From the NCBI GenBank assembly GCA_051867895.1, contig JBJDZH010000005.1, positions 103,487 through 167,486 on the forward strand: a DNA stretch of 64,000 nucleotides. The letters run 5' to 3'. The position numbers and the translations under genes are program-made. Each line of letters starts with the position of its first letter. Within the stretch, counting starts at the first letter, position 1. The notes beneath the pieces are model-generated. The model made no database searches. It was not told the DNA's origin and was given only the letters and a program-made list of their open reading frames with translations. The stretch comes from Eubacteriales bacterium. GTDB taxonomy: Bacteria > Bacillota > Clostridia > Oscillospirales > CAG-272. Below, in pieces: positions 7,015 to 64,000 of the stretch.

Positions 7015-7560
7015 CGCCGGGGGAAACTTTTTGAAACAAGTTTCCCCCATGCCCCTTTCAAAAACTTTCATACTGAATACACAATACTGTGCAGCGGGAT
7101 TTTCTTCGTGCGGTACTCTGTTTTTGCTCTGAGAGTTTTGGGGGAACATCTCAGTTATGGAGAAAGACTCATTCACCTCGCATTGCGGGGGAGAGGACCA
7201 TCTCAAGCGCCTCGCATTGCGGGGGAAAGGACCATCTCAGACGCCGAAGTTCCTCTCCCCCGCAACCCTCTCTCCTTGGCTTCCGGAGGGAGGGTGCGGC
7301 ATTTCGCTTTCCACATCAAAAAACACAGGGAGCGCGGGCGCGAACGTGTTTTTCGGGATGGGCGGGCAGAGGGAATTCTAACGGTTTCCGCTGCACTCTG
7401 TCGCACCGCACGGCATCCGGAGGGATAGCGGACAGGTTCTACTGCGCTTTGACGGGCATTCAGTTTGAAAGCTCTTGAGGGGGTGCGGGGGAACTTCTTG
7501 CAGAAGTTCCCCTGCATCGTTCTCCCCACGCCCCTTGCCTCCGCATCCCCTGCTGTTTGC
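7015..7560 (-). repeat. Mosaic repeat cluster 2: A-B-degenerate P-B', then a reverse-oriented core with 2 tail units, then A and Z'
   Basis: Hairpin A at ~7019-7049 and 7485-7515. Tail units at 7146-7218. H1 at 7219-7263. Modules E/D/C at 7264-7460. The cluster fills the whole birA-amidohydrolase spacer. Confidence 0.9.
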
Positions 7561-7615
7561 AATCGGCGTCGTTTTTCGGCAAAATCCTTGCAAAGAGGGA
7601 CAGATTATGCTATTA

Positions 7616-8437
7616 TTATAGGAGATTTTTCCCGCCGAGCAGCGCGCGGGCGTTGCCGGCGAGAATCGCCTCCCGCTCCGCTTCCGACAGCGGCAGCGAC
7701 CGCACGAAACGCACGCCTTCCGCCGGATCGCCCCACGGGCAGTCGGAGGCGAAAAGGATCCGGCTCACCCCGTGCGCGCGGATGATGTCCATAACCTCCT
7801 CCGGCTTCGCATAATTGAAGATGAAGGAAAGATCAAAATACACGTTCCGTCCCGCCAGATACCGCACCACGTCGGGAAACTGCCTGTTTCCGCCCCCGTG
7901 CGCAAACACGATCCGCGCCGTCTCCGGCCCGCCGTCCGCCTCCACCGCGTCCAGAAACCGCGCGGCGCGCTCCGGCGAACAGCGGACCGTGTCCGGAAAA
8001 CCGTCGTCCACGCCCGCGTGCGTGACGACGATCAGCCCAAGCCGCAGCGCCTGTCGCGCAATGCGCACGTAGCGCGCGTCATCAATGTACACCCCTTGGT
8101 AATCCGGATGGATCTTGATGCCGCGCAGTCCCATCGCCTGAATTTCGGCAAGATGCCCCTCTATATCCCCGTCGTCCGGGTGGATGCCGCCAAAGGAGAG
8201 CAGTCCCGGCGTCCGGCACAGCTCCGCCGCGAACGCGTTCACCGAACGGAACTGCGCGGGGCGCGTCACCACGGGCAATACGACGCCAAGCGAGACGCCG
8301 CTGTCCCGCAGCCTGCGCACGAGCGCTCCGGCGGTGCCGTCGGTACACGGTACGGCGGCTGCTTTTTCAGCGAGGTAAGGGATCGTCTTTGCGGCAAGCG
8401 CGTCGGGAAACGCGTGCGTGTGAAAATCAATTATCAT
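7616..8437 (-). CDS. Metal-dependent amidohydrolase-family protein (TIM-barrel hydrolase)
   Basis: 273 aa from MIIDFHTHAFPD (HxH metal motif), ending ...ASDCPWGDP. The track ORF 7616..10420 (934 aa) is this gene fused to an antisense shadow of the ligase gene. Confidence 0.8.
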   Translation of the reverse strand: MIIDFHTHAFPDALAAKTIPYLAEKAAAVPCTDGTAGALVRRLRDSGVSLGVVLPVVTRPAQFRSVNAFAAELCRTPGLLSFGGIHPDDGDIEGHLAEIQAMGLRGIKIHPDYQGVYIDDARYVRIARQALRLGLIVVTHAGVDDGFPDTVRCSPERAARFLDAVEADGGPETARIVFAHGGGNRQFPDVVRYLAGRNVYFDLSFIFNYAKPEEVMDIIRAHGVSRILFASDCPWGDPAEGVRFVRSLPLSEAEREAILAGNARALLGGKNLL

Positions 8438-8533
8438 AAAATACCGGCTCCGTATTGCTGATTCGGGTATATTGTACCCGCTGCGCCGCCGGATTGCAAG
8501 AGTGAATCTGTAAAAAAACGAGGAGAATCCAAG

Positions 8534-10171: not shown

Positions 10172-10185
10172 GACGCCGGGAGATA

Positions 10186-10431: not shown

Positions 10432-12159
10432 ATGAAAAAACTACTGATCGGAAACGAAGCGCTTGCCCGTGGCTTTTACGAGGGCGGCGTCGGCGTTGTC
10501 TCCAGCTATCCCGGCACCCCCTCGACGGAGATCACGGAATTTCTCTCCGCGTACCGCGACATCTACACCGAATGGGCGCCGAACGAAAAGGTCGCCTGCG
10601 AGGTGGCGTTCGGCGCGTCGCTCGGCGGCAGGCGTTCCGTCTGCGCCATGAAGCATGTCGGACTGAACGTGGCAGCGGATCCGCTCTTCACGCTCTCCTA
10701 CACCGGTGTGAACGCGGGTATGGTGCTGTGCGTTGCGGACGATCCCGCCATGCATTCCTCCCAGAACGAGCAGGACTCCCGCCACTATGCGGTCGCGGCG
10801 AAGCTGCCCATGCTGGAGCCGGCGGATTCCGGCGAGGCGTACGCCTTTGCCAAGGCATCCCTTGCCCTCTCGGAGCAGTTTGACACCGTGGTGCTGATGC
10901 GTATGACAACGCGCATTGCGCATTCGCAGAGTCTGGTGGAGACCGGCGAGCGCACCGACGCGCCGGTGAAGGAATACAAAAAGAACCCGCAGAAATACAT
11001 CATGATGCCCGCATACGCGAAAGGACGGCATCCCATCGTGGAAGAGCGGATGGCGGCGCTTGCCGCGTACGCGGAGGACTGCCCGTTCAACCGCGTGGAG
11101 GACGGCGCGGATCACGCGCTCGGCATCATCACAAGCGGCGCCTGCTACCAGTACGCGAAGGAGGTATTCGGAGATTCCGTACCCGTACTGAAGCTGGGCA
11201 TGGTAAATCCGCTGCCGCCGCAGCTGATCCGGCGCTTCGCTGCGTCAGTGAAGCGTCTGGTCGTGATCGAGGAGCTGGACGGCGTGATCGAAACGTTCTG
11301 CCGAACGCTCGGGCTGGAGGTGGAGGGCAAATCGATGTTCTCCCCGATCGGCGAATACTCGCAGCGCACCGTTGCAGGTGCATTCGGCATGCCGGTACCG
11401 CCGGTGACGCCGGCGCCGGCGGAGCTGCCGGGACGTCCGCCGATGATGTGCGCGGGCTGTCCGCACCGCGGCATGTACTATGTGCTGGCAAAGAACAAGG
11501 TGACGGTTCTCGGCGACATCGGCTGCTACACGCTGGGCGCGCAGCCGCCTTTGTGCGCGGTGGATACGACGCTGTGCATGGGCGCATCGGTATCCGGTCT
11601 GCACGGCTTCAACAAGGCGCAGGGCGCGCAGGCGGAGGGCAGGACGGTCGCGGTCATCGGCGACTCGACCTTCATGCATTCCGGTGTGACGGGGCTGATC
11701 GACATTGCGTACAACGGCTCCAACTCGACGGTGATTATTCTGGACAACTCCATCACCGGCATGACGGGGCACCAGCAGAACCCGACGACAGGGCTGGATA
11801 TCCACGGCGACCCGGCGGGCAAGATCGATCTGGAGGCGCTGTGCCGCGCCGTCGGCATCCGCCGCGTGACGGTGGTGGATCCGTACGACCTGGCGGCGTG
11901 CGAGCGGGCGCTGAAGGAGGAGCTGGCGGCTCCGGAGCCGTCGGTAATCATCTCGCGCCGTCCGTGCGTGCTGCTCAAAAATGTGAAAAAGAATCCGCCG
12001 CTCGCCGTGAACGCGGACAAGTGCCGCGGCTGCAAATCGTGCATGGGTCTCGGCTGCCCGGCAATCAGCTTCCGGAATAAAAAAGCCGTCATCGACGAAA
12101 CGCTCTGCGTGGGCTGCGCCGTCTGCCGCCAGAAATGCGCCTTTGACGCGATCGGATAA
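10432..12159 (+). CDS. iorA: Indolepyruvate:ferredoxin oxidoreductase, alpha subunit
   Basis: 575 aa from MKKLLIGNEALARGFYEGGVGVVSSYPGTPSTEI. TPP-binding region and C-terminal 2x[4Fe-4S] ferredoxin motifs (CRGCKSCMGLGCP, CVGCAVCRQKC). AAAGGAG SD. The track start at 10258 is a GTG inside the repeat cluster. Confidence 0.9.
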   Translation: MKKLLIGNEALARGFYEGGVGVVSSYPGTPSTEITEFLSAYRDIYTEWAPNEKVACEVAFGASLGGRRSVCAMKHVGLNVAADPLFTLSYTGVNAGMVLCVADDPAMHSSQNEQDSRHYAVAAKLPMLEPADSGEAYAFAKASLALSEQFDTVVLMRMTTRIAHSQSLVETGERTDAPVKEYKKNPQKYIMMPAYAKGRHPIVEERMAALAAYAEDCPFNRVEDGADHALGIITSGACYQYAKEVFGDSVPVLKLGMVNPLPPQLIRRFAASVKRLVVIEELDGVIETFCRTLGLEVEGKSMFSPIGEYSQRTVAGAFGMPVPPVTPAPAELPGRPPMMCAGCPHRGMYYVLAKNKVTVLGDIGCYTLGAQPPLCAVDTTLCMGASVSGLHGFNKAQGAQAEGRTVAVIGDSTFMHSGVTGLIDIAYNGSNSTVIILDNSITGMTGHQQNPTTGLDIHGDPAGKIDLEALCRAVGIRRVTVVDPYDLAACERALKEELAAPEPSVIISRRPCVLLKNVKKNPPLAVNADKCRGCKSCMGLGCPAISFRNKKAVIDETLCVGCAVCRQKCAFDAIG

Positions 12160-12385
12160 GGAACGGAGAACGGGGAACGGAGAACGATGCGGGGGCTTTT
12201 TGAAAAAAGTCCCCGCGCCCCCAAAAACTTTCGGGCAAAAACAGGGATACTGTACGGCGAAATTTTCGCTGTGCGGGACTGTATATCAGTTTGAAAGTTT
12301 TTGAAAGGGGCACGGGAAAACTTTTTTCAAAAAGTTTTCCCCGGCATATCCCTTCCCCCGGCGTCTCCCCGTATCCCCTGTGGGC
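12160..12385. repeat. Mosaic repeat cluster 4 (Z-A-B-degenerate P-B'-A'-Z') between iorA and iorB
   Basis: Z units ggaacggagaacggggaacggagaacg directly after the iorA stop. Hairpin A gggggctttttgaaaaaagtcccc at ~12191-12214. A' gggaaaacttttttcaaaaagttttcccc at ~12314-12342. The repeat lies inside an operon. Confidence 0.85.
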
Positions 12386-12438
12386 AGCGGACCGGTTTTT
12401 CATGCGAATCAAAACATTAACATAACGGAGTACAAACC

Positions 12439-13033: not shown

Positions 13034-14344
13034 ATGGAAGAGCGCTACTACCAAAAAGAAATCGAAACCATGCCCCGCGAGCAGATGCGCGCGCTCCAGA
13101 GCGAGCGCCTCGTCCGTCAGGTGCGGCACGTCTGGGACAACGTTCCCTACTACCGTTCCCTGATGGAGAAAAAGGGCGTCACGCCGGACGACATCCGCAG
13201 CGTGGACGATCTCAGCAAGCTGCCGTTCCTGACGAAGGCGGATCTGCGGGACGAGTATCCGTACGGACTGCTCGCCGCGCCGCTGTCCGACTGCGTGCGC
13301 ATCCAGTCCACCTCCGGCACGACAGGACGGCGCGTCGTCGCGTTCTACACGCAGCACGACGTCGATCTGTGGGAGGAATGCTGCGCGCGCGCCATCGTTG
13401 CCGCGGGCGGCACGCGCGAGGACGTGGTGCAGGTCGCCTACGGCTACGGTCTGTTCACCGGCGGTCCCGGACTGAACGGCGGCTCCCACAAGGTCGGCTG
13501 CCTGACGCTGCCGATGTCCTCCGGCAACACGGAGCGGCAGATCCAGTTCATGATGGATCTCGGCGCGACGATCCTCTGCTGCACGCCGTCCTATGCGGCG
13601 TACATCGGCGAGGCGCTGAAGGAAAAGGGCTACAAGCCGGAGGATAACCGGCTGAAAGCAGGCATCTTCGGCGCGGAGCCGTGGACGAACGAAATGCGCC
13701 GCGACATCGAGCGCTCGCTCGGCATCAAGGCGTTCGATATCTACGGACTGACGGAGACCTCCGGCCCCGGCGTCGCGTTCGAATGCGGGGAGCAGACCGG
13801 CATGCACATCAACGAGGATCACTTTATCCCGGAGATCATCGATCCGGACACCGGCGAGGTGCTGCCGGAGGGCGAACGCGGGGAGCTTGTCTTTACCTCG
13901 ATCACCAAGGAGGCGTTCCCGCTTCTGCGCTACCGCACGCGCGATATCTGCGTGCTCACGCGCGAGAAATGCTCCTGCGGGCGGACGCTCGTCAAAATGT
14001 CCAAGCCAATGGGCCGCTCGGACGACATGCTCATCATCCGCGGCGTGAACGTGTTCCCGTCGCAGATCGAGACGGTGCTGCTGAACGAGGGCTACTCGCC
14101 CAACTACCAGATCGTGGTGGACCGCGTGAACAACACGGACACGTTCGACGTGAACGTGGAAATGACGCCGGAGCTGTTCTCCGACACGGTGAAGGGCACG
14201 CAGGCAGCCGAGGCGAAGCTCGTGGACGCGATGCGCGTCATGCTGGGCATCACGCCGAAGGTGCATCTCGTCGCGCCGAAATCCATCGCACGCAGCGAGG
14301 GCAAGGCGGTGCGCGTCGTCGACCGGCGCAAGCTGCACGACTGA
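13034..14344 (+). CDS. paaK: Phenylacetate-CoA ligase family enzyme
   Basis: 436 aa from MEERYYQKEIETMPREQMRALQSERL, with QSTSGTTGRRVV and the typical PaaK C-terminal domain. The track start at 12995 overlaps the iorB end; ATG 13034 is preferred. Confidence 0.88.
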   Translation: MEERYYQKEIETMPREQMRALQSERLVRQVRHVWDNVPYYRSLMEKKGVTPDDIRSVDDLSKLPFLTKADLRDEYPYGLLAAPLSDCVRIQSTSGTTGRRVVAFYTQHDVDLWEECCARAIVAAGGTREDVVQVAYGYGLFTGGPGLNGGSHKVGCLTLPMSSGNTERQIQFMMDLGATILCCTPSYAAYIGEALKEKGYKPEDNRLKAGIFGAEPWTNEMRRDIERSLGIKAFDIYGLTETSGPGVAFECGEQTGMHINEDHFIPEIIDPDTGEVLPEGERGELVFTSITKEAFPLLRYRTRDICVLTREKCSCGRTLVKMSKPMGRSDDMLIIRGVNVFPSQIETVLLNEGYSPNYQIVVDRVNNTDTFDVNVEMTPELFSDTVKGTQAAEAKLVDAMRVMLGITPKVHLVAPKSIARSEGKAVRVVDRRKLHD

Positions 14345-15922: not shown

Positions 15923-16142
15923 GCTGCTGCCTGCTGTGTTCGTGATGCGTGAGTAATTAAACCCACAGATAACAAATGGAGCCCGGACTTCTCCTGCCGG
16001 TATGCAGACCTCCCCCGCGCCGCTCCTTTGACCGGCGCGGCGGACGCTGGGAGCACAAAACAGGAGAGAGGGCACCGCCCTTGCGAAAGCAGGGTTTCTA
16101 TCTTCTTGCGCACACGGCACGGCGGGTATTTTTGCCGGTACC

Positions 16143-16174
16143 GGCGCTCGCCTTCGGGCGGGCGCCGTTTTTTT
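16143..16174 (+). terminator. Rho-independent terminator
   Basis: GGCGCTCGCC-ttcg-GGCGGGCGCC followed by gttttttt. Confidence 0.75.
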
Positions 16175-20691: not shown

Positions 20692-20844
20692 TTCTTCGCC
20701 CTCTTTCGTGCCGGTTTTCCGATTATCTTTGGCGCATTAGTGTGTTTTTTGACCGCTTTTGTGCCTTTTTTTCCATTATATCGAATTCTGACGCGTTTGT
20801 CAAGGACAAACATGGGGGAGTGGATGCAGGGGATGCGATACAGG

Positions 20845-49237: not shown

Positions 49238-49265
49238 CGGACACTCCATCTCCCGTGCGGGAATA

Positions 49266-49745: not shown

Positions 49746-49764
49746 GTGTCTCCTTTCTCAGGAC

Positions 49765-50565: not shown

Positions 50566-50570
50566 CCCCC

Positions 50571-51746: not shown

Positions 51747-51747
51747 C

Positions 51748-52275: not shown

Positions 52276-52339
52276 GGATGCTTACCTCATATTTTTGATG
52301 TTTGTATGGAAAGGGGGAGCGCCCTCCCCCGCGTACACG

Positions 52340-53218: not shown

Positions 53219-55959
53219 GGCGTCACCTGCGCGGCAAGCGCCGCGAATGCATCCGGCGAAATGCGCACGACGGTGTAGCCGCCCGCCCGGTCTGTGACCT
53301 CAATATACAGCGGGGAGGTGCCGTCGTACTGCGTCACGTCAAACGTAACGGCTGCCTTTTTCTTTCCCGCCGGCGATTCCGCGTTCGCGTCGGCGCGGGG
53401 GAATGTGTAGATCGCGTCGTAGGCGGAGATGCTCAGGAGCGCCTCGTTGTCCGCCGCTGTCACGTCCAGAAGGAGCCGTTCCCCGTCGCGGCGCACCTCC
53501 GTCTGCCCCACGCGCGGCAGAACGGAATCCACCGTGAACGTAAAGCCGAGAAACTGCACCGCGTCCGTGTCCGGCGGAAAGAAGGAGGAAAGACGGATCT
53601 CGCAGGAGTATTCCCCGTCGGGGAACAGATAATCCGCGTTGTCCGCCGCGATGAAGTCCCAAAGCGGAATCACCGCCTCGCCGCCGCGGAGGTATTTCGA
53701 AGCGCCGTCCGTCTCGCGGGAGAACACGAGGCGCCGCTCACTGTCGTAAAAGGAGATCTGTATGGAATCGATGTCGCGCAGCGCGCACAGATGCAGCTCC
53801 ACCCAGCCGTAGCGCAGCGAGGCGGGGTCGACAAGATTGTACGATGCATCCCAGAGCGTCTGTCCGCCGAGCACATACGGGTCGGCGGTCCCAAGGGAGA
53901 GCGCCGATTCATTCTCTCCGTCGAAGCGGCGGATATGCAGCGTCGCGGGTGCGAACACCGCCTCCTCCCCCGTATAGGCGGAGGGATCGGCGAGGGGCGC
54001 ACTTGCCCAGTCGCCGAAGAACGCCGTGAACGGATGCGTCTCCGTCTCCCCGCCGTCGCTCAGTTCCAGAACGCCGTCCGCGTAAAAGCCGTTCCAGAAT
54101 ACGGACAGAAGACGCCTCTGCACCGTCTCCGGGATCGTCAGCCGGAGGCGGATGCTGATCGTGCGGTGCGCACCGATGGTGACCATGGCGGGCGTATAGC
54201 TGCCGCCGTTTGCGCATATGTTGACACCGGAATCGCCGACGTACATCCGCGCCCCGGCAATCGGCTCGCTTTCTCCGTTTAGGAGGTTCTTCCCGTCCGT
54301 CTCTGTGTATCCGTCGCCGTACACGCGCGCGCACAGCGAATAGCGCTTGGCGGTGTCCGTTTCATTCGTTATGCGGACAGAGAAAGAGATCGTCGAATAG
54401 CGCGAGGATCCGAGTACGGAGACCGCCCGCCCCTCCGCGGAGGAGAGAAGCGTCTGTGCGTATTCGCCTTTCCCCGAGACAATGCCCGCTCCCACCAGGC
54501 GCGGCGGGAGCGTATCCCCGTCCCCGTCGCGCGCTGCACGGGCGGCGGACACGCACAAGGAGAGCGCCTCCGAAGCGGGAAGAGAGGCGCGGGTGCAGTA
54601 TTCAGCGGCGCGCGCAATATACCCGGCGGCGGCCGCCGCGGCGTAATAGGAGCCGGTAACGGCGGCGTACAATGCGCCGTCCTTTCCGGCAGCGGCGGGA
54701 ATGGCGGCGCGCACACCCTCCCCTGCGCACAGGAATGCCGGCGTGCGGCTGAGCGCACGGTTCAGCCCCGAGGCGCTGTATGCGGACGCGCCGTCCTTTC
54801 CTTCCCGGAAAACGGCAGTCAGTACCGCGGCGCTGCCGCGCAGAAGCTTTCCGCTCTCCTGATCTACCATGACGGCGGGAATGGGCGCTCCGTCGAGCGC
54901 CATGCGGGAGACGCCGTTCCCCGCGTCCACGACGATCATCGCGGCTGCGCCCGCTGCTGCTGCTGCCTGCGCCTTCTCGGTGAAGGTGATCTCCCCGCGG
55001 GAGACGACCGCGATCGCACCGGTGCAGTCCAGGGAGGCGTAGTCCTCCTCCCGTCCCATGCCGGGCACCGGGACGAGGGGCAGCTCCTGCCCCGCCATCA
55101 GCGCGGCAAAGGACGCGCCGAAATACTCCGTGCAGGAATCCGTATAGGTGATCTCCTGCGGCTCCGCGCCGGGGGAGACGAGTGAAAACGACGAAATTCC
55201 GGCAAACGGGTCGGCGGCGATGCCGACGAGGGTCAGCGATTCGATGGCGGAATAGTCGGCGAGCGTGCCGCGGTCCGTGCAGGTGACGGGCAGCTTCGCC
55301 TTGGACGCAGCGGCGCCGATCTCACCCGTGCCCGCGAGCACGGGTACGCCTGCCGTCTCCGCCTCTCTGAGTGCCTCCAGGAGTGCGTCATTGGGAGACA
55401 GGGACGCGAAATTCACCAGAATCGCGCATGCGCCGAGTTGGAGCGCGTCGCGGATGGCGGCAGCCGCCGCGTCCGCGTCCAGCCGGATGGAATTGTCCTT
55501 TGCCGCCTTGAAGAGCAGCAGCTGCGCGTCCGGCGCCGCGCCGGTGAAGCCGGGGACGCGGACGACAGTGCCGTCGTCGCCCGCCGATGCGGCTGTATCG
55601 GGGGCATGTCCGGCGGCAAGAGAGGAAGCCGCCGTGCCGGTGAAGGAGGTGTTGGATACGTCCGCGTCCCCGCAGGCATAGTCGTAGGCAGCGGGGATCT
55701 TTTCACTGACGTAGCAGTCCCTGCCGCACGCTTCGGCAACCGCCTCCCGGGTGAGGCGCGCCGCAGCGGGCGCGCAGGAGAACGCCGGATGCGTCACGTC
55801 GAAGCCCGCGTCCACCACGGCGATGACGGCTGTGCGCCCGCTGTAGTCGGAGACGGAGCGGGACGGCTCCTCCGGCACGGCAAAGACGGCGGCGGGAAAA
55901 GCGAGGAGCGCGGCAAGGAGCGCCGACGCGGCTTTCTTACAGATATTCAAGATCGTCAT
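53215..55959 (-). CDS. Secreted subtilase (S8)-like protein with degenerate catalytic motifs, a probable pseudo-protease paralog
   Basis: 914 aa. Signal peptide. Collinear with the neighbouring S8 peptidase (Asp motif VVDAGFDVTHPAF retained), but HGTH becomes FTGT, GNDG becomes GTGE, and GTSMASP becomes TGSYYAA. A PA-domain-like insert is present. Confidence 0.7.
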   Translation of the reverse strand: MTILNICKKAASALLAALLAFPAAVFAVPEEPSRSVSDYSGRTAVIAVVDAGFDVTHPAFSCAPAAARLTREAVAEACGRDCYVSEKIPAAYDYACGDADVSNTSFTGTAASSLAAGHAPDTAASAGDDGTVVRVPGFTGAAPDAQLLLFKAAKDNSIRLDADAAAAAIRDALQLGACAILVNFASLSPNDALLEALREAETAGVPVLAGTGEIGAAASKAKLPVTCTDRGTLADYSAIESLTLVGIAADPFAGISSFSLVSPGAEPQEITYTDSCTEYFGASFAALMAGQELPLVPVPGMGREEDYASLDCTGAIAVVSRGEITFTEKAQAAAAAGAAAMIVVDAGNGVSRMALDGAPIPAVMVDQESGKLLRGSAAVLTAVFREGKDGASAYSASGLNRALSRTPAFLCAGEGVRAAIPAAAGKDGALYAAVTGSYYAAAAAAGYIARAAEYCTRASLPASEALSLCVSAARAARDGDGDTLPPRLVGAGIVSGKGEYAQTLLSSAEGRAVSVLGSSRYSTISFSVRITNETDTAKRYSLCARVYGDGYTETDGKNLLNGESEPIAGARMYVGDSGVNICANGGSYTPAMVTIGAHRTISIRLRLTIPETVQRRLLSVFWNGFYADGVLELSDGGETETHPFTAFFGDWASAPLADPSAYTGEEAVFAPATLHIRRFDGENESALSLGTADPYVLGGQTLWDASYNLVDPASLRYGWVELHLCALRDIDSIQISFYDSERRLVFSRETDGASKYLRGGEAVIPLWDFIAADNADYLFPDGEYSCEIRLSSFFPPDTDAVQFLGFTFTVDSVLPRVGQTEVRRDGERLLLDVTAADNEALLSISAYDAIYTFPRADANAESPAGKKKAAVTFDVTQYDGTSPLYIEVTDRAGGYTVVRISPDAFAALAAQVTP

Positions 55960-55970
55960 ACCTCCGCAAA

Positions 55971-58946
55971 TCAGTCCAGGTACAGCCGGAGGACGGTGAG
56001 ATTTCCGGCATAGTCCTCGGCGCTGACGTATACGTAGGACGCGCCCTGCGGCAGCGCCGCTTCGATATACGCTTCGTGTACGCCCTCTTCATAGGCGGGC
56101 GACACGCGCACGTCGAGAAGGTATTTTTCTTCCTCGGGCGCGTTCCGGTCCGCCGCCGGATCGGGCAGATACACGCGCAGCTGCCGCAGATAATGGTTGT
56201 CCGTGAAGCGCGCACGCACGGTTTTGTCATCGGCGGAGCATTCCGACGCGCGGGGACGCTCCGTATCGACGAGCAGCGGTACGGTGAGAATCTGCTGTCC
56301 GCCGGAGAAGGAGGTGAACGTCACGCGGACGGAGTACAGTCCGTCCTCCCAGGAGAAGTGGTCGTTCAGTCCGTCGCTGCCGTCCCAGAGCGGGAGCAGC
56401 GCGGGGACGGGCCGTCCGTCCTCCACGGCGGTCTTGAGCAGATCGAATTCGACGTTTTCATATACGAGCTGTCCGTCGGGGGCATAGACCTCGACGGATG
56501 CCTCGGCGATATTGCGATGGGGGAACAGCTCCCAGACGGTGTCGTCCGCGCGCCTGTCCCCGTTCGGGGAGAAGGCGAAGAGTACGGAAAACACGCCGTC
56601 CTCCGTTTCGCCCGCGGTGTCCGTGACGCCGCGCACCGTGCGGAGGATGAGCTGCCCGCCGTAGTAGCTTTCATAGCCGTCCCAGTCCCCGCCGTCGAGC
56701 ATGGGCGCGTCTGCCCAGCGTCCTGCGAAGGCGAGAAACGGAAGGGACGCCGCGTGTTCCCCGTTTTCGTACCGGGCGATGACGAAGCCCTCAAGGTAGA
56801 AGCCGTTCGGGAAGAGCTTGGCGAGCGAGGCGAAGTATTCCGCGTCGGCGGAGAGGGTCAGCGATACCTCCAGCGTGCCGCCCGCAGGTACGGTGCAGAG
56901 GACGCCCGCGTCCGTGACGGAGACGCCCGCGTCCGGCGCCGCGTCGAGCGTGGCGGGCACCGCTTTCGAGGCGCCGGTCGTGTAGAATACGCCGTCGCGC
57001 AGCTCTGTTTCATCAGTCAGCAGAGGAGCCGTGAGCAAAAGCCGCTGCGGCTCGTCCGTTTCGTTCGTCAGCCGGACGGGGAGGCGCAGAACACCCGCGC
57101 ACCGGTCGCCGGGCTGGAAGGAGAACGCGTTCTCCGGCGCGCTCATCACGATGCCGGCGTCCCAGGAGCGGAGCACGCCCGCGCCCTGCGCGCGGGGAGA
57201 AACAGGCAGACCGGATTCATCCGTCAGCACCTCGGCGTATGAGGCGAAGCGGCGGCGCACCTCTCCTGCGCGGCTGCTTGCCGGCAGGGCGGACAGCTCT
57301 TCGCGGTGGAGAGAGATGTAGACTGCCGCCGCGCCGCTGATCTGCGGGGACGCCATGGAGGTGCCGTTCATGACGGCATAGCCGCCGCCAGGCACGGCGG
57401 AAACGACGGAGACGCCGACGGCACAGATGTCCGGCTTCAGGAGGAGATCGGAGACCGGTCCCCAAGACGAGAAGGAGGCGATGCCGCCCGCTGCGGCAGC
57501 AAAGGCGCCGTTTTTGTCGGAGATATGTACGTTGACGCCGTCCCGCGCGGCGAGAAAGGCGCCGTCATGCGCGGCGACGGAGACAGCGGGGATGGCGGGC
57601 GCTTCGCCGATGCTCATCAGAAACGGCTCGCCGTCCGCCGCGTCGTATACGATCACGCCGGCGGCTCCCGCCGCGGCGGCGTTGGCGATCTTTTCGGCAA
57701 AGGAGATCTCGCCGCGCGCGATGAGCGCCAGAGCGTTCTGTGCGTCCGTCTGCGCGAAATCCTCCGCTGTTCCGACGCCCGGCACGACAGCGAGGCGGAA
57801 GCTCTTCCCGCCGAGCACGTCGGCGAACGCGGGCGCGGTGCCCTCGGATGCCTCGTAGGTTTCATCATAGACGATACGCCGCCCGTCCGCATCGAGATAG
57901 CCGGCGTAGACGACGGAGTTTGACGCCGCGCCGACGGAGAAGGCGAAGGGAAGCGCGGCAGGCTCGCTCGGCAGACCGTAGTCCGGGTCAGAGGCGCGCG
58001 CCAGATCGGAGTGGAGCCCCATCGCGCCTGCGCGACCGTCGTTTCCGGCGGCGCACACGACGAGCGCGCCCGCCTCCTCCGCGCGGCGGAGGGCGTTTGC
58101 GAGCTGGCGCATGGAGCAGTATTCGCTTGTATAGGCGAGGGAGCCGAGGCTCAGGTTGATGACGTCCGCGCCGAGACGCACCGCGTCCTCAACAGCGAGG
58201 ATGAGCGCGTGCTCGCGGCACGATTTGCCCGCGTCGTCAAATACCTTCATCAGAGCGAGCTGCGCGCCGGGCGCAGTGCCCATGAGCGCGCCACCCTCCG
58301 CGACGGAGGCGGCGGCAGCTGCGGCGACGTGCGTTCCGTGCGCGGAGCTCCCGCTCACATCCGCGTCGCTGTTCGCGTAATCGTAGGCGAAGGGGATCTT
58401 CGATGAGTGATAGACGGCGCGGATATTCTCGCGTCCCTCGCGGTAGACGGCATAGGTATCCGTGACCGCCTCGCCGAAATTTTCCTCCGTGATCGCGGGG
58501 GAGACGGAAGCAGGCAGAGCGAAGGCGGGATGCTCCGTGTCAAAGCAGGTGTCCAGCACGGCGATCAGCGTTCCTTCGCCCGCGTTTTCCTCCGCGGCGC
58601 GCAGGACGAGGTCGTCCCGGGACAGCTCCGGGGTATCTGCCGCCTGCGCGTCGCCGGAGGGCGCGCAGAAGGAGGCGGAAACGCTGACGTCCGTCACGCC
58701 GGGCAGAGCGCGCAGCGTATCGGCGGCGCGCGCGGCGGAGGCGGCGGGGACGGAGACGGCGGCGGCATCGATCAGGGAATATGTACAGAGCAGGGACGCC
58801 CCCGGGACGGCGGAGAGCAGCTCGGCGGGATCCCGGTCCGTTTCCACGAGAAGGACGGTTTCGCCGTGGGCGGGCGCGGCGGCGGAGACGGCGGGGAGCA
58901 GCAGCGCGAGCGTGAGCACGGCGGCAGCAATGCGGCGCATAAGCAT
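55971..58946 (-). CDS. Secreted S8-family serine peptidase (subtilisin/C5a-peptidase-like, with PA domain)
   Basis: ~991 aa from MLMRRIAAAVLTLALLLPAVSAA. Catalytic motifs VLDTCFDTEHPAF (Asp), SSAHGTHVAA (His), AAGNDG (Asn) and NGTSMASPQISGAAA (Ser). The track start at 58979 is upstream of the signal peptide. Confidence 0.85.
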   Translation of the reverse strand: MLMRRIAAAVLTLALLLPAVSAAAPAHGETVLLVETDRDPAELLSAVPGASLLCTYSLIDAAAVSVPAASAARAADTLRALPGVTDVSVSASFCAPSGDAQAADTPELSRDDLVLRAAEENAGEGTLIAVLDTCFDTEHPAFALPASVSPAITEENFGEAVTDTYAVYREGRENIRAVYHSSKIPFAYDYANSDADVSGSSAHGTHVAAAAAASVAEGGALMGTAPGAQLALMKVFDDAGKSCREHALILAVEDAVRLGADVINLSLGSLAYTSEYCSMRQLANALRRAEEAGALVVCAAGNDGRAGAMGLHSDLARASDPDYGLPSEPAALPFAFSVGAASNSVVYAGYLDADGRRIVYDETYEASEGTAPAFADVLGGKSFRLAVVPGVGTAEDFAQTDAQNALALIARGEISFAEKIANAAAAGAAGVIVYDAADGEPFLMSIGEAPAIPAVSVAAHDGAFLAARDGVNVHISDKNGAFAAAAGGIASFSSWGPVSDLLLKPDICAVGVSVVSAVPGGGYAVMNGTSMASPQISGAAAVYISLHREELSALPASSRAGEVRRRFASYAEVLTDESGLPVSPRAQGAGVLRSWDAGIVMSAPENAFSFQPGDRCAGVLRLPVRLTNETDEPQRLLLTAPLLTDETELRDGVFYTTGASKAVPATLDAAPDAGVSVTDAGVLCTVPAGGTLEVSLTLSADAEYFASLAKLFPNGFYLEGFVIARYENGEHAASLPFLAFAGRWADAPMLDGGDWDGYESYYGGQLILRTVRGVTDTAGETEDGVFSVLFAFSPNGDRRADDTVWELFPHRNIAEASVEVYAPDGQLVYENVEFDLLKTAVEDGRPVPALLPLWDGSDGLNDHFSWEDGLYSVRVTFTSFSGGQQILTVPLLVDTERPRASECSADDKTVRARFTDNHYLRQLRVYLPDPAADRNAPEEEKYLLDVRVSPAYEEGVHEAYIEAALPQGASYVYVSAEDYAGNLTVLRLYLD

Positions 58947-59144
58947 GGTGGAGATCCTTTTTTCGGGCAGAAAAATCATATGCCTACATTATAACGGATA
59001 CGCGTGCCGAAAACAAGGCGTATCCTGTGAACACGCGCCGAAATTATGTGCAAAATTCACGAAACTTCTTGCAAAGGAATCCGCTTTATGGTACACTGAT
59101 TCCGTACACCGAAAATTTTCCTCAGATTATAAAAGGAGCCGCAT

Positions 59145-60395
59145 ATGATACTTGAAAACATGGCGGGCATCTCCGACGGGGAGCTGCGTTCTGCGCTCGC
59201 CGGGGTGCTCGCGGGCAGAAAGCTCTCCCGGGTGCTGATCCTGCCGCCGGATTTCACGCGCATGTATTCCTGCGCCGGTAAGATCACCGCGATTCTGTAC
59301 GAGCTGCTCAGCGGCAGCTGCGAGGTGGACATCATGCCCGCCCTCGGCACGCATGCGCCGATGACGGAGGCGGAATGGACTGCGTTCTTCGGTGCGGGCG
59401 TGCCGTTTTCCAAAATGATCGTACACAACTGGCGCACGGACGTTGTCAAGCTGGGCGAGGTGCCGGCGTCCTTTGTGAGCGAGGTATCCGAGGGGCTGGT
59501 GCGGGATAAGATCGACGTTGAGGTGAACCGCCGGCTGCTTTCTCCCTCCTATGATCTGATCCTGTCCGTCGGGCAGGTCGTGCCGCACGAGGTCGTGGGC
59601 ATGGCGAACTACTCGAAGAACATTTTTGTCGGCTGCGGCGGTTCCTCCATGATAAACGCCTCGCACATGCTGGGCGCGTTCTATGGCATGGAGCGCGTGA
59701 TGGGACGGGATCACTCGCCGGTGCGGCGCGTGTTTGACTACGCGGAGGAGCATTTCCTCGGAAATATCCCGCTTGTTTATCTTCTGACGGTAACGACGAA
59801 CCAGGGGGATGAGACGACGCTGCACGGGCTGTACGCGGGACGTGAGCGCTCGAATTTCGAGGCTGCGGTGCGGCTCAGCCAGAAGCTCAATCTGACGCAC
59901 ATGGCGCGGCGGCTCAACAAGGTTGTGGTCTATCTGGATCCGCGTGAATTCAAGAGCACGTGGCTGGGCAACAAGGCGATCTACCGCACGCGGATGGCGA
60001 TCGCGGACGGCGGTGAGCTGCTGGTGCTTGCGCCGGCGGTCGCGCGCTTCGGCGAGGACGCCGAGAACGACCGTCTGATCCGGAAGTACGGATACGTGGG
60101 GCGGGAGCGGGTGCTCTCGCTGGTGGAGGAGAGTGAGGAACTGCGGGCGAATCTGTCCGTGGCGGCGCATCTGATCCATGGCTCTTCGGACGGACGCTTT
60201 ACCATCACCTATGCGACGGAGAAGCTGACGGAGGCGGAGGTGCGCGGCGCTGGCTTCGGCTACATGCCCTACGACGAGGCGGCGGCGAAGTACGATCCGG
60301 CGAAGCTGAAGGACGGCTTCAACACCGTGGACGGGGAGGAGATCTTCTATATTTCCAATCCGGCGCTCGGACTCTGGGTGTGTGACGGCGAGTGA
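59145..60395 (+). CDS. LarA-like (lactate racemase N-terminal / DUF2088) domain protein
   Basis: 416 aa. LILPPDFTRMYS and MPALGTHAPM resemble the LarA-family D-x-TR and GTH motifs. AAAGGAG SD. The family call is from motif memory only. Confidence 0.55.
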   Translation: MILENMAGISDGELRSALAGVLAGRKLSRVLILPPDFTRMYSCAGKITAILYELLSGSCEVDIMPALGTHAPMTEAEWTAFFGAGVPFSKMIVHNWRTDVVKLGEVPASFVSEVSEGLVRDKIDVEVNRRLLSPSYDLILSVGQVVPHEVVGMANYSKNIFVGCGGSSMINASHMLGAFYGMERVMGRDHSPVRRVFDYAEEHFLGNIPLVYLLTVTTNQGDETTLHGLYAGRERSNFEAAVRLSQKLNLTHMARRLNKVVVYLDPREFKSTWLGNKAIYRTRMAIADGGELLVLAPAVARFGEDAENDRLIRKYGYVGRERVLSLVEESEELRANLSVAAHLIHGSSDGRFTITYATEKLTEAEVRGAGFGYMPYDEAAAKYDPAKLKDGFNTVDGEEIFYISNPALGLWVCDGE

Positions 60396-60399
60396 CGAG

Positions 60400-60865
60400 A
60401 CGGGGGACGGATACAAAGGGACGGATACAAAGGGCGGGGAACGCCGTGGGGGAACCTTTTGAATAAGACTCCCGCGAGGTTGCGCTTTGCGCAACCTCGC
60501 CGACTTGCGCGGAGCGCAATGTCGCCCACACCCCCTTAAACTTTCGGACTTTGACACGGTCTAAGCATAGTTAACTCTGACCGCTATCTCTCCGGATTCC
60601 GTGCAGCGCGGCAGAGTGCAGCCGGAATCGTCAGAATTCACTCTGCCCGCCCCGCCCGAAAAACACGTTCGCGCACGCGCTCCTTGTGTTTTTGATGGAG
60701 AACGCAAAACGTCATGCTTCTTCTTTCCCTCAGCCAAGGAGAGAGGGATGCGGGGGAGAGGAACTTCGGCGTCTGAGATGGTCCTCCCCCCCGCAATCGT
60801 GAGGCGGATGAGATGCTCCCCACACCCCCGCGCCACGAGACGGGTGAGACCCCCGCGATAAGGGT
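60400..60865 (+). repeat. Mosaic repeat cluster 14: Z-A-Q-B, then a forward core
   Basis: 14-bp units gggacggatacaaag x2 at 60404-60432. A-type hairpin at ~60447-60475. Q (gcgaggttgcgctttgcgcaacctcgc, then cgacttgcgcggagcgcaatgtcg) at ~60474-60523. H1 at 60750-60794. Tail to ~60865. Confidence 0.9.
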
Positions 60866-60961
60866 CCCTTTGATCCTAAGCAAACGCGTTTACGCTATGT
60901 TCGCTCAAACACCCCTCCCCATTTCCTTCCCACCTCCAGCACAAGAACGAAAGGAAACTAC

Positions 60962-61822
60962 ATGAAATACATCGATCTCCATACCCACTCCCTGAAGAGC
61001 GACGGCTCGCTCACCCCTGCCGGGGTGGTTTGCGCCGCGAAGGACGCAGGTCTGGCTGCCATCGCCCTCTCCGACCACGATTCCGTCGACGGCGTTGAGG
61101 AAGCCGTCGAGGAAGGACGCCGCCTCGGCGTCGAGGTTATCCCCGCCGTCGAGCTGTCCGCCCAGTCGGACACCGAGCTGCACATCCTCGGCTATTTCAT
61201 CGATATCCACAACAAGACGCTGCGCGAAAAGCTCGCCTACGCCCTGCAGGTGCGGGACGAGCGCGAGGAGGAAACCTGCGAAAAGCTGCGCGAGCTTGGC
61301 TTCGACATCACGATGGACGAGGTCCGCGCCGAGGCAAACGGCAATCCCGTCCTCTGCCGCGCGCATTTCGCCAAGATCATGGTGCGCAAGGGCTACGCCG
61401 AATCGGTGAAGGACGCCTTCGCGCGCTACCTTTCCAGCGGCTGCTACGCCTACTCCAACCGGCAGGCGCTGACCGGTCCGGAGGCGGTCTCCCTTATCCG
61501 CGAGGCGGGCGGCATTCCTGTCGCCGCGCATCTGCACCTCATCCGCCTGCCGGACGGTGAGCTGCGGGAATTCCTTTCGTCGCTGATCCCGTACGGTCTC
61601 GGCGGCGTGGAGGGCTACTACACCGATTACACCCCCGATATGCAGCTGCGCTATCAGCGGATGGCGGCTGAACTGGGACTGACGATCTCCGGCGGCACCG
61701 ACTTCCACGGCGCGAATAAGCCTCACATCACTATCGGTCGTGGGCTGGGGGAACTGCGCATTCCCTATACCGTCCTCGACGGGCTGCGCGAAAAGCACGC
61801 CGCGATGGGGAAAAACTTTTGA
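60962..61822 (+). CDS. PHP-domain phosphoesterase (TrpH/YciV-like)
   Basis: 286 aa. N-terminal IDLHTHSLKSDGS and SDHDSVDG metal motifs. The last 5 codons and the stop lie in an A-type hairpin. Confidence 0.85.
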   Translation: MKYIDLHTHSLKSDGSLTPAGVVCAAKDAGLAAIALSDHDSVDGVEEAVEEGRRLGVEVIPAVELSAQSDTELHILGYFIDIHNKTLREKLAYALQVRDEREEETCEKLRELGFDITMDEVRAEANGNPVLCRAHFAKIMVRKGYAESVKDAFARYLSSGCYAYSNRQALTGPEAVSLIREAGGIPVAAHLHLIRLPDGELREFLSSLIPYGLGGVEGYYTDYTPDMQLRYQRMAAELGLTISGGTDFHGANKPHITIGRGLGELRIPYTVLDGLREKHAAMGKNF

Positions 61823-61870
61823 AAAGGGTTTCTCCATCCCCCTTTCAAAAACGTTTGAAATCGGGGAAAG
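61806..61870. repeat. Solo A-B repeat module overlapping the PHP gene's 3' end
   Basis: ggggaaaaacttttgaaaagggtttctcc, followed by the palindrome tttcaaaaacgtttgaaa. Confidence 0.75.
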
Positions 61871-61938
61871 CCGGCTGCGTCCGGCGCGCAGGAAAACACA
61901 GAGAAAAATTATAATTACATAAAAGGAGCACTCCCATT

Positions 61939-63402
61939 ATGAAAAAAGCTGACATCGGTCTGATCGGTCTTGCGGTCATGGGCGAGAACCTCGTTCTCAA
62001 CATGGAGTCCAAGGGCTTCACCGTTGCGGTATTCAACCGCACCACGGAAAAGGTGACGAATTTCGTCTCCGGCCGCGGCGCAGGCAAAAACATTATCGGA
62101 ACGTACTCGCTTGCGGAACTGGTCGAAGCGGTGGAGAAGCCGCGCAAGATCATGATGATGATTAAGGCGGGCGACGCGGTCGACGCCATGATCGACGCGC
62201 TGCTGCCGCTGCTGGACGACGGCGATATCCTGATCGACGGCGGCAACTCGCATTTCCCGGACACCGCGCGCCGCACGGCGTATGTGGAATCGAAGGGCAA
62301 ACTGTACATCGGTACCGGCGTATCCGGCGGCGAGGAGGGCGCTCTGAACGGTCCGTCCCTGATGCCCGGCGGTTCGCCCGCCGCATGGCCGCATGTGAAG
62401 AATATTCTCCAGTCCATCTGTGCGAAGGTGGAGGACGGTTCGCCCTGCTGCGACTGGGTCGGTGAGAACGGCGCGGGGCATTTTGTGAAGATGGTACACA
62501 ACGGCATCGAGTACGGCGATATGCAGCTGATCTGCGAGGCGTACCATCTGATGAAGAATCTGCTGGGAATGTCGGACGACGAGATGCACGAGGTATTCGC
62601 CGAGTGGATGAAGGGGGATCTGAACAGCTATCTGGTAGAGATCACGCGGGACATTCTGGCGTACAAGGACACGGACGGCGAGCCGATCGTGGAGAAGATT
62701 CTGGACACGGCGGGGCAGAAGGGCACCGGCAAATGGACGGGTATTGCGGCGCTGGACGAGGGCGTGCCGCTGACGCTGATCGGCGAAGCGGTGTTCGCGC
62801 GCTGCCTGTCGGCGATGAAGGAGGAGCGCGTTGCGGCGTCGAAGGTGCTGCCGGGCGAAGCGGAGGCTGCTCCCGCGCTGACGGCGGAGGAGAAGGCAGA
62901 ATGGATCGAGAACATCCGCTGCGCGCTGCTGGCGTCGAAGATCGTTTCCTACGCGCAGGGCTACACGCTGATGCGTGCGGCTGCGAAGACCTACGGCTGG
63001 AATCTGAACTACGGCGGCATTGCGCTGATGTGGCGCGGCGGCTGCATCATCCGTTCCGTATTCCTGGGCAAGATCAAGGACGCTTTCGACAAGAATCCCG
63101 AGCTGACCAACCTGCTTCTCGATCCGTATTTCACCGAGAAGATCGCGTCTCTTCTGCCCGGATGGCGGAAGGTCGTAGCACAGGCGGCGCTGTCCGGCAT
63201 GCCTGTTCCCGCGTTCTCCTCGGCGCTGTCGTACTATGACGGCTATCGCTGCGAGCGGCTCCCCGCGAATCTGCTGCAGGCGCAGCGCGACTATTTCGGC
63301 GCGCACACCTATGAGAGAGTGGACGCCGAGCGCGGCAAGTTCTTCCACACGAACTGGACGGGACACGGCGGAGACACGGCGGCAAGCCAGTACATAGTCT
63401 GA
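61939..63402 (+). CDS. gnd: 6-phosphogluconate dehydrogenase, decarboxylating (NADP+)
   Basis: 487 aa. IGLIGLAVMGENLVLN Rossmann motif. Conserved GAGHFVKMVHNGIEYGDMQLI and YFGAHTYER. Confidence 0.95.
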   Translation: MKKADIGLIGLAVMGENLVLNMESKGFTVAVFNRTTEKVTNFVSGRGAGKNIIGTYSLAELVEAVEKPRKIMMMIKAGDAVDAMIDALLPLLDDGDILIDGGNSHFPDTARRTAYVESKGKLYIGTGVSGGEEGALNGPSLMPGGSPAAWPHVKNILQSICAKVEDGSPCCDWVGENGAGHFVKMVHNGIEYGDMQLICEAYHLMKNLLGMSDDEMHEVFAEWMKGDLNSYLVEITRDILAYKDTDGEPIVEKILDTAGQKGTGKWTGIAALDEGVPLTLIGEAVFARCLSAMKEERVAASKVLPGEAEAAPALTAEEKAEWIENIRCALLASKIVSYAQGYTLMRAAAKTYGWNLNYGGIALMWRGGCIIRSVFLGKIKDAFDKNPELTNLLLDPYFTEKIASLLPGWRKVVAQAALSGMPVPAFSSALSYYDGYRCERLPANLLQAQRDYFGAHTYERVDAERGKFFHTNWTGHGGDTAASQYIV

Positions 63403-64000
63403 AAAAGACGCGGACGCAGGGGGTGAGCGCGCAGGGGAACGATGTGGGGAAGCCTTTTGAAAAAGGCTCCCCCACGCCCCCCGCGAAAACTTTCAACCTG
63501 AATTCCCGCCAAAGCACAGCAAAACCTGCTTGCCATTCCTCCGGATGCCGTGCAGCGCGGCAGAGTGGAGCGAAAATCGTTAGAATTCACTCTGCCCGCT
63601 CCACCCGAAAAACACGTTCGCGCACGCGCTCCTTGTGTTTTTTGAAGGAGGAAAGCGAAGCACCGTGTCCCTTTTCCCCTCGAAGCCAAGGAGAGAGGGG
63701 TGCGGGGGAGAGGAACTTCGGCGTCTGAGATGGTCCTCTCCCCCGCAACGCGAGGCGGACGAGATGAAGACACGGACGCAGGGTGAGCGCGCAGGGGGAA
63801 CGATGTGGAGAAGCCTTTTTCAAAAGGCTCCTGCGAGGTTGCGCTAAGCGCAACCTCGCCGACTTGCGCGGAGCGCAATGTCGCCCACACCCCCTTAAAC
63901 TTTCGGACTTGAATCTCCGCCAAAGCACAGCAAAACCTGCTTGCCATTCCTCCGGATGCCGTAAAGCGGACCGAAGTGCAGCCACACCACCCCCGGTCTC
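63403..64000 (+). repeat. Mosaic repeat cluster 15: a full forward core, then the start of a second copy (Z-A-Q-B-C...) running off the window
   Basis: Hairpin A at 63444-63475. H1 at 63702-63746. Second A at ~63811-63840 and Q at ~63832-63885. Confidence 0.9.

Follow-up and report, generated by a model that had tools for sequence, protein, structure and literature searches.

The 64-kb window analysed here (64,000 nucleotides of contig JBJDZH010000005.1 from a Eubacteriales bacterium; GC content 61%) spans an origin region of Firmicute type, in which gyrA, gyrB, dnaN and dnaA on the minus strand diverge from rpmH, rnpA, yidD, yidC and khpB on the plus strand, and its intergenic spacers carry a modular repeat, referred to below as the core. 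An nhmmer profile built from one repeat copy located 15 full cores of approximately 290–320 nt each, besides a pair of orphan 3' modules, a further core truncated at the edge of the window and numerous small copies of 5' modules (Table 1). Repeats make up approximately 7% of this origin-proximal region and are present even inside operons and in the spacer that contains the replication origin (oriC). Genes were called by codon score and named by Pfam; every gene identity proposed in a first-pass annotation of this DNA was confirmed, with the amidohydrolase gene at 7616-8533 (-), and the core repeats give spurious open reading frames (ORFs) in the window ORF list. The cores may well be copies of a composite intergenic repeat of approximately 300 bp that was amplified in the spacers of an uncultured Oscillospiraceae-type genome. 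Their orientation relative to genes is biased, and we put at roughly 0.5 the probability that selection against polar insertions best explains this bias, the cores being tolerated, passively transcribed repeats with a triplex motif at their heart.

Core copies align end to end with a mean column identity of 77% and share one module order: Z, a GA-rich lead-in; A, a perfectly palindromic hairpin with four compensated variants; B, a C-rich segment; small helices; an A-run/U-run hairpin; E, the block AGCCAAGGAGAGAGGG; and H1, a 13-bp hairpin with a 19-nt loop. Extra direct half-copies, consisting of the 3' half of the loop and the pyrimidine arm, lie 20–30 nt past H1 at 43984-44002, 47114-47132 and 7184-7211 and may offer an alternative partner for the purine arm. 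Half-copies of the module also occur at two loci of the comparison set described below (L031 and L043).

Orientation and transcription of the cores

The spacers of the window comprise 36 co-directional, 5 divergent and 4 convergent ones, of which 8 co-directional, 2 divergent and 2 convergent spacers bear cores, as does the spacer after gnd, the far side of which lies off the window. The first-pass annotation had stated that cores are almost always sense to the upstream gene, at 10 of 11 loci that follow a stop codon, with a binomial probability of 12/2048. The count and the arithmetic are right, and the lone antisense core does lie beyond a P hairpin relative to the ROK gene, but the secG/cyclase and araC/WG loci are convergent and hence uninformative, because in such a spacer a core is sense to one neighbour whichever way round it lies. 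Tandem core copies are not independent events either, and what had been listed as two copies after khpB and after secG is in each case one full core and an orphan E+H1 module of only 66–78 nt. Among the informative co-directional spacers the ratio is 8:1 in favour of sense (one-sided p = 0.0195, against the earlier figure of 0.006), or 7:1 (p = 0.035) without gnd, whose downstream neighbour is off the window. Cores in spacers lacking a P hairpin were all sense (7/7), and composites carrying P were sense in a ratio of 3:1.

Two full cores (1943-2212 and 33057-33359) fall outside the post-stop definition used in that count. Each lies between divergent promoters that match the consensus at 11–12 of 12 positions, among them TTTACA-17-TATAAT for PFOR and a 12/12 match for rpmH, and by prediction these two cores belong to no gene's transcript. 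Relative to oriC (approximately 30.5–31 kb) the cores split 8 versus 7 between the replication strands, and replication direction was rejected as the source of the bias: cores follow genes, not forks. GC skew within the window was uninformative on replication direction. The orientation bias stands at p of about 0.02 and does not generalise to other genomes.

The distance from stop codon to core, or to a preceding orphan module, is 12–100 nt at nine sense loci and 233 nt at the WG gene, and no terminator-like site in gene direction was found between stop and core at any of the 10 sense loci. Because the cores directly follow stop codons with no terminator between, RNA polymerase is expected to read into them. 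In the P module, a hairpin of 15 bp stands between an A-tract and a U-tract; it folds at -24 kcal/mol, with z between -5 and -7, whichever strand is taken. It presents the GC-rich hairpin and subsequent U-tract of an intrinsic terminator on both strands, a terminator scan flags 43828-43793, and P is a credible candidate for a bidirectional intrinsic terminator. The order gene, core, P is seen at three loci. The layout of stop codon, core, A-B-P-B'-A and promoter that had been described for several spacers is present at the solute-binding-protein locus, where it ends in a TTGATT-17-TATAAT promoter for the next gene. In the seven P-less spacers, no convincing terminator precedes the next gene.

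The spacer between nifS and rlmH, which holds two cores, is informative in this respect. The 130 nt that separate the second nifS core from rlmH show no promoter-like sequence. A relative (locus L044; Logan SRR29134213; RlmH 77% identical) shares with the window the gene order S8, S8, rSAM, a hypothetical gene, nifS, rlmH and WG, and its nifS-rlmH spacer measures 94 nt compared with 825 nt in the window. Because the L044 spacer is only 94 nt long, it appears that the two cores were inserted where the genes meet in operon-like fashion, and expression of rlmH most likely relies on read-through. The spacer between iorA and iorB (12160-12438, +) contains Z-A-B, a variant 12-bp hairpin without an adjacent U-tract, and B'-A'; this P-like module is not terminator-shaped, and the repeat modules there are probably situated inside an operon. 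A candidate promoter within A-B (TTGACC or TTGAAA with 16–18 nt spacing) was rejected, as it gave only 9/12 matches and its motif is absent from other A variants. Taken with the L044 spacer, the lack of a terminator after the stop codon bears out one part of the earlier proposal that the cores are RNA of the 3' untranslated region (UTR) or intercistronic RNA: they are probably transcribed passively as part of such RNA. The other part, that sense transcription is the purpose of the element, is not supported.

Table 1 Full and partial cores, orphan modules and P hairpins of the 64-kb window, with strand and gene context.
Feature	Position	Strand	Orientation and context
P hairpin, decayed	~1862-1907		
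Full core	1943-2212	-	Divergent PFOR/DUF6062 spacer; between predicted promoters 1671-1699 (-; PFOR) and 2346-2374 (+; DUF6062)
Full core	7218-7514	-	Sense; amidohydrolase (stop 7616), core, birA; spacer without P hairpin
Full core	18475-18787	+	Sense; first of head-to-tail pair; 35 nt past rnr stop (18440)
Full core	18845-19132	+	Sense; second of rnr pair; two A.C mismatches in H1 stem
Full core	20866-21154	+	Sole antisense core; between ROK (stop 21399) and araC promoter (20775-20803, -)
P hairpin	21265-21311	both	A-tract, 14-15 bp stem, U-tract; directly after ROK
Full core	31049-31339	-	Sense; 43 nt past dnaA stop; then DnaA-box cluster 30535-30948 (oriC) and dnaN
Full core	33057-33359	+	Divergent dnaA/rpmH spacer; between predicted dnaA promoter (32913-32941, -) and rpmH promoter (33534-33563, +)
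Orphan E+H1 (triplex-motif) module	37513-37590	+	12 nt past khpB stop
Full core	37637-37935	+	Sense; khpB, core, beta-lactamase-family gene
Orphan E+H1 module	39976-40041	+	Downstream of secG stop (39903)
Full core	40092-40394	+	Convergent secG/cyclase spacer; orientation uninformative
P hairpin	40642-40688	both	Between core 40092 and converging GNAT/cyclase gene
P hairpin	43788-43833	both	In A-B-P-B'-A' inverted module; downstream of core 44005, upstream of M23 promoter (43640-43668, -)
Full core	44005-44316	-	Sense; 52 nt past solute-binding-protein stop (44369)
P hairpin	46861-46907	both	Overlaps araC2 stop; common to convergent araC2/WG spacer
Full core	47134-47426	-	Convergent araC2/WG spacer; orientation uninformative; preceded by four DnaA-type boxes (47596-47651)
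Full core	49877-50173	-	Sense; second of nifS-rlmH pair
Predicted triplex blocks of core 49877-50173	49878-49936	-	Third strand 49925-49936; purine arm 49910-49922; loop 49891-49909; pyrimidine arm 49878-49890
Full core	50219-50538	-	Sense; first of nifS-rlmH pair; 32 nt past nifS stop (50571)
Full core	60519-60795	+	Sense; LarA-like gene, core, PHP gene; alternative 5' module replaces hairpin A
Full core	63445-63747	+	Sense; 42 nt past gnd stop; downstream neighbour off-window
Partial core, 5' part	63878-63983	+	Cut by window end

The oriC in the dnaA-dnaN spacer is marked by a cluster of nine DnaA boxes (TTTTCCACA/TTATCCACA) adjoining a core, and the orthologous spacer of CP091718.1, a related genome considered below (locus L011, 5230-5900), likewise combines DnaA boxes and repeats. 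The four DnaA-type boxes of the araC2/WG spacer lie directly after the WG-repeat gene and are conserved in L044 (12100-12260), where they precede the SIS gene. The khpB/jag gene contains at least seven tandem coding repeats of 42–48 nt (36016-36414).

The E+H1 module

A search of genome contigs with the H1 pattern matched three other genomes: CP091718.1, a complete 1.78-Mb Oscillospiraceae metagenome-assembled genome (MAG) with 37 exact matches, and the MAGs CAKSNQ01 and CAVDLN01. Only E+H1, approximately 68 nt, is shared between genomes, and the surrounding repeat modules differ in each; a metagenome scan with the D-module pattern returned 6 chance matches. The module is also carried by a siphovirus prophage fragment (L043; IMGVR_UViG_3300032167_001085, positions 10552-10956 and 13886-13970) with capsid, Dit, tail and M23 genes, in which A-B modules and two triplex modules, all sense, lie within a 930-nt non-coding gap. 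A phage origin of the module was rejected, as a single viral contig carries it, as a late-operon passenger.

The H1 stem was analysed over 12 distinct variants from six sources. Compensatory changes are found at 10 of its 13 pairs, 94% of cells are paired compared with 56–67% when the partner is slid, and the stem score was reached by 0 of 500 shuffles. The 19-nt loop ACTTCGGCGTNTGAGATGG and an AGCC tag are essentially invariant in every genome seen. The first-pass annotation had noted a perfect Shine-Dalgarno (SD)-like sequence just before H1. Such a block, AAGGAGAG, does lie directly before H1 in 16 of 17 modules, but it is not perfect everywhere (AAGGAGCG at 18845) and no start codon is conserved after it. 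The SD-like AAGGAGAGAGGGG mirrors the purine arm on the 5' side of H1, GGGGGAGAGGAA, and is not its complement.

This mirror relation extends to the other genomes as covariation of three blocks. The blocks are ordered AAGGAGAGAGGGG-TGC-GGGGGAGAGGAA in the window and AAGGAGAGGGGG-GACC-GGGGGAGAGGAA in CP091718.1, the latter with 12 perfect positions. Where the arm differs the mirror block differs with it, and T may replace A: in CAKSNQ, GGAGGGAGAA stands against 3'-GGAGGGTGAA, and in the prophage fragment AGGGAAAGGGGAAGAA stands against 3'-TGGGTTAGGGGTTGTA, with 16 of 16 positions allowed. Three ERZ variants show the same mirror pattern. The linker between third strand and purine arm is 3–6 nt in most variants; two of the ERZ variants hold a whole extra hairpin of 20–25 nt in it. 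When mirror blocks and arms were permuted over six arm types, the native pairing was the best of 720 permutations, and over all 11 variants p was 4e-5. Each variant provides 9–16 allowed triplets (G·G, A·A and T·A), up to 16 of them contiguous, and in 10 of 11 variants the antiparallel alignment scored above its parallel counterpart. The use of T·A-T excludes a triplex of pyrimidine motif formed by the complementary strand.

We compared these features with the class I and class II definitions and allowed triplets of Holder et al. 2015 (PMC4666352). E+H1 contains the purine block, complementary pyrimidine block and antiparallel mirror block that define a triplex repeat, and a generic class I scan found 13 of the 17 modules and no other site in the window, with 0 matches in 30 shuffles. 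Neither strand of the window contains a match to the TMECO class II consensus, CCCTCNCCC N3-6 GGGNGAGGG N3 GGGNGAGGG. The purine–pyrimidine loop is always 19 nt, compared with the 1–6 nt loops of the ITxF definition. By its symmetry, E+H1 reads as a class I purine-motif intrastrand DNA triplex motif composed of a 5' reverse-Hoogsteen block, for which the SD-like sequence would serve, a short linker, purine arm, loop and pyrimidine arm.

Other readings of the same module were considered and set aside. A small ORF with a genuine SD at AAGGAG was rejected for want of a conserved start codon or reading frame behind AAGGAG: the triplet 6 nt past AAGGAG reads ATG, GTG, TTG, CTG, GGG or GTA among window copies, an NTG there is absent in CP091718.1, and the ATG in the loop opens only 10-codon or variable ORFs. 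A pseudoknot of GCCAAG with the loop sequence CUUCGGC was likewise rejected; both elements are invariant, no covariation is seen, and the variant CTTCGTCG breaks the pairing. A presumed likeness of the antisense-strand GAGAGGACC to the sarcin-ricin loop, and a presumed K-turn in the loop, were dropped.

Polarity of insertion and rival explanations

Inside the window cores, terminator-like sites number 0 on the sense strand and 7 on the antisense strand (0 versus 4 when stems of at least 8 bp are counted), the absence of sense sites being due to the A-runs before and the C/A-rich sequence after the hairpins on that strand. These antisense-only terminator-like hairpins suggest selection against the polar orientation. 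In a sense core, the A/C-rich sequence that follows the hairpins would let polymerase read through, whereas in an antisense core U-rich tracts would follow them, making the hairpins terminator-like and the insertion polar on downstream genes. An antisense core would persist only at places where transcription has already been stopped by a genuine terminator, P. The sense bias would in this way reflect purifying selection on the orientation of insertions and not a function of the sense RNA. A role for Rho rut sites, considered in view of the moderately C-rich sense strand (skew -0.12), was set aside.

CP091718.1 differs from the window in both relevant properties. In its co-directional spacers the module is sense in 4 cases and antisense in 7 (window versus CP091718.1, Fisher p = 0.028), and 5 of 6 convergent spacers have it antisense relative to the nearest gene. 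At two spacers orthologous to core-bearing spacers of the window, dnaA-dnaN (L011) and upstream of PFOR (L026), the module is inverted in both. Terminator-like sites in the repeat of this genome number 26 in the module-sense direction and 5 in the antisense direction, and include an 11-bp CCCCCTTCCCC/GGGGAAGGGGG hairpin followed by AGATTTTT. Orientation preference and terminator-site polarity are both reversed relative to the window, and the non-terminating orientation is found in 15 of 20 co-directional spacers when the two genomes are pooled. On four further contigs (L048-L051, three from ENA and one from NCBI; RlmH approximately 71% identical), a single module lies antisense in a co-directional GH43 spacer, 4/4. 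A sense rule is no property of the conserved E+H1 module. Among the 29 classifiable modules of CP091718.1 (loci L001-L035), 12 are in divergent, promoter-bearing spacers. Selfish repeats normally accumulate between convergent genes, and this distribution is unusual for such elements.

Several points weigh against selection on polarity acting on a triplex-bearing repeat. The sample is small, and the polarity rule was framed after both genomes had been seen, so that the one-sided p of approximately 0.02 for 15/20 is post hoc. "Terminator-like" denotes a loose consensus, and the antisense excess of such sites in the window is partly a matter of base composition (C>G and A>T on the sense strand). 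Modules are co-oriented with their one known neighbour in 6 of 7 cases in CAKSNQ01, the one module of CAVDLN01 is sense, and the prophage fragment carries two sense copies in its late operon; there may be a general sense preference beyond the polarity rule. With respect to the triplex, its formation is read from sequence symmetry, TMECO itself did not display a stable triplex in vivo (PMC4666352), the window E+H1 contains one imperfect triplet or bulge, and the invariant 19-nt loop is not accounted for by a triplex.

The foremost alternative is that the cores are functional structured sense RNAs, either 3' UTR or intercistronic RNA ending at P or precursors of small RNAs, which would influence how stable the mRNA is or how strongly the downstream gene is expressed. 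Sense orientation at 10 of 11 loci (8 of 9 informative ones), the arrangement of gene, core, P and promoter at three loci, the want of a recognisable promoter for rlmH after two cores, and the mostly co-oriented copies in CAKSNQ01, CAVDLN01 and the prophage all fit such a role. On the other hand, two cores lie between divergent promoters, and the antisense majority and inverted orthologous copies of CP091718.1, together with the antisense module after GH43 on four contigs from close relatives, are at odds with it. The sense RNA folds less stably than the antisense RNA for 15 of 15 cores, by a mean of 17 kcal/mol; the excess stability of the antisense RNA is largely an effect of G versus C composition, and for this reason the use of folding energies to assign the strand of a putative RNA was dropped. 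Mismatches in the H1 stem, read on the sense strand, are A.C in 8–9 cases and G.U (G.T) in 1–4, the opposite of the pattern that a sense RNA hairpin tolerates, which favours the antisense strand or DNA, with a small number of events. Among the fold and sequence evidence, the sole point in favour of RNA is that the D hairpin and a hypothetical inner helix of the H1 loop contain invariant G.U pairs, which are present on the sense strand alone.

Comparative evidence for an RNA was sought as well. RNAalifold on window copies gave almost no covariation, the copies being too similar, and the covariation that E+H1 displays across genomes is that of a purine-motif triplex, a type of triple helix reported not to form in RNA (PMC4666352). 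The core matches none of the covariance models of Rfam 15, and permissive Rfam scans of one core locus and of the ERZ variants returned chance miRNA-type matches only. The only Rfam match in the window is a 6S RNA gene (15925-16132, 54.7 bits), which is followed by a canonical terminator (16142-16167) and lies directly upstream of rnr. Weighing these observations, we regard a functional sense RNA as unlikely.

It is less likely still that no real bias exists, the 8:1 ratio being a small-sample fluctuation inflated by tandem copies and convergent spacers among orientation-neutral selfish repeats. The corrected p is only 0.02–0.035 for a hypothesis picked after the sequence had been read, the pooled count over all genomes is approximately 21 sense and 10 antisense with strong heterogeneity, and TMECO in E. 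coli has no strand bias (PMC4666352). Such neutrality is hard to reconcile with the 7/7 sense cores at P-less loci and with a difference between the window and CP091718.1 that tracks the terminator-site polarity of each repeat type.

To a similarly low degree we credit the idea that orientation is fixed at insertion, by a polar target (integration or recombination at a GA-rich Z after stop codons) or by a preference of the triplex strand for the non-template (displaced) strand: the "empty" nifS-rlmH spacer of L044 already has Z-like sequence, Z-like ACGC.GATGCAGGRG stands on both sides of the two-core insertion of the window, Z-A lies sense after the SIS stop codon at the L044 contig end and the triplex strand is the non-template strand in sense cores, but Z also accompanies the antisense core and both divergent-spacer cores, CP091718.1 and the ERZ relatives mostly have the triplex strand on the template strand, and neither a transposase nor a terminal inverted repeat nor any clear target duplication came to light. 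The direct repeats of Z-like sequence on either side of the nifS-rlmH insertion are an ambiguous case of target-site duplication.

The repeats also coincide with rearrangements. Core-bearing spacers are the only places where synteny breaks between L044, the closest relative, and positions 47134-61822 of the window: L044 has S8b next to PHP, two genes separated by larA and a core in the window, and the adjacency of WG and SIS in L044 is broken in the window at a core and P. Locus L049 (8478-8557) contains a chimeric module in which the 5' arm of the GH43-spacer copy passes, at a point inside the loop, into a 3' arm of a different type, which looks like the product of recombination between modules.

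Comparison with known intergenic repeats

Intrastrand triplex repeats have been described as BoxC, PIT and TMECO in E. coli, other Proteobacteria and Cyanobacteria (Holder et al. 2015, PMC4666352; Hoyne et al. 2000 as cited in PMC4666352). Like the cores, these are multi-copy and strictly intergenic with very high identity between copies, and they have a purine arm, a complementary pyrimidine arm and a G/A/T mirror block that yield G·G-C and A(T)·A-T triplets; TMECO also shares the rearrangements at repeat sites, seen here as the L044 synteny breaks and the L049 in-loop chimera. In contrast to class II TMECO, E+H1 has the class I order of third strand, purine arm and pyrimidine arm. Its arms are 11–16 nt compared with 9 nt, its loop is 19 nt and invariant where the loops of TMECO are short and vary more than its stems, and the window cores show an orientation bias that TMECO lacks (PMC4666352). 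E+H1 further differs from these repeats in being embedded in a 300-bp composite, in occurring in Clostridia and a prophage, and in its three-way covariation across genomes.

Other repeat systems resemble the cores in build or placement. BIME/REP elements of Enterobacteria are transcribed together with neighbouring genes, and they can make upstream mRNA more stable or attenuate transcription. They too are mosaics of intergenic hairpin modules in fixed orders, located after stop codons and inside operons, but they are imperfect palindromes of 20–40 bp, whereas the window unit is much longer and has as its key module a triplex motif whose loop is conserved. The REP tag GTAG/CGTC, which marks one end of those palindromes, is not conserved in the window: ahead of the module its copies have CAGCC, AAGCC or GAGCC, and GTAGCC is confined to some of the copies in other genomes. 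The window shows no gene for RAYT, the transposase associated with REP.

The pneumococcal repeats BOX (boxA-B-C), RUP and SPRITE are modular composites (Croucher et al. 2011, PMC3049150) which, like the cores, are transcribed with flanking genes as untranslated regions and give spurious ORFs; their depletion where expression would be disturbed (PMC3049150) is a further likeness. BOX differs in its unrelated sequence, its terminal inverted repeats and its candidate mobilising insertion sequence, and no triplex symmetry has been reported for it. For ERIC/IRU and Correia elements, the effect on co-transcribed mRNA depends on insert orientation (PMC3049150), which provides a precedent for orientation-dependent selection. 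These elements differ from the cores in being MITE-like (MITE, miniature inverted-repeat transposable element), with terminal inverted repeats, and in acting through RNase E or RNase III sites in RNA. The cores have only internal hairpins and no end-to-end inverted repeat, and a MITE structure was rejected since no terminal inverted repeats were found. Passive co-transcription and orientation-dependent effects on mRNA are already known for BIME/REP, BOX, ERIC and Correia (PMC3049150). What was not expected is that E+H1 reads as a triplex motif, with covariation of all three blocks around an invariant loop.

A stronger claim, that E+H1 is a strand-specific triplex element kept by selection whose loop and AGCC tag form the recognition site of a dedicated protein, is one that we advance tentatively and hold to be doubtful. 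If it were true, the loop would have a candidate binder, for example a recombination, mobilisation or replication/repair factor, and the 300-bp cores would be lineage-specific composites centred on a mobile or recombinogenic DNA module of a new kind, and their orientation relative to transcription would set when the triplex strand is exposed. The three-way covariation across at least five genomes and a phage would then constitute comparative evidence for a selected intrastrand triplex structure. For BoxC and TMECO, which are conserved and linked to instability, a function or a selected structure has so far not been established; the E+H1 family supplies natural compensatory variants with which to ask whether the triplex itself is selected.

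On a practical level, these repeats break assemblies: contigs of the relatives are mostly shorter than 3 kb and end inside the repeat, and the family will fragment short-read assemblies of this clade and be under-represented in MAG collections. If the orientation rule does reflect selection against polar insertions, it would give a simple account of how a genome tolerates abundant intergenic repeats.

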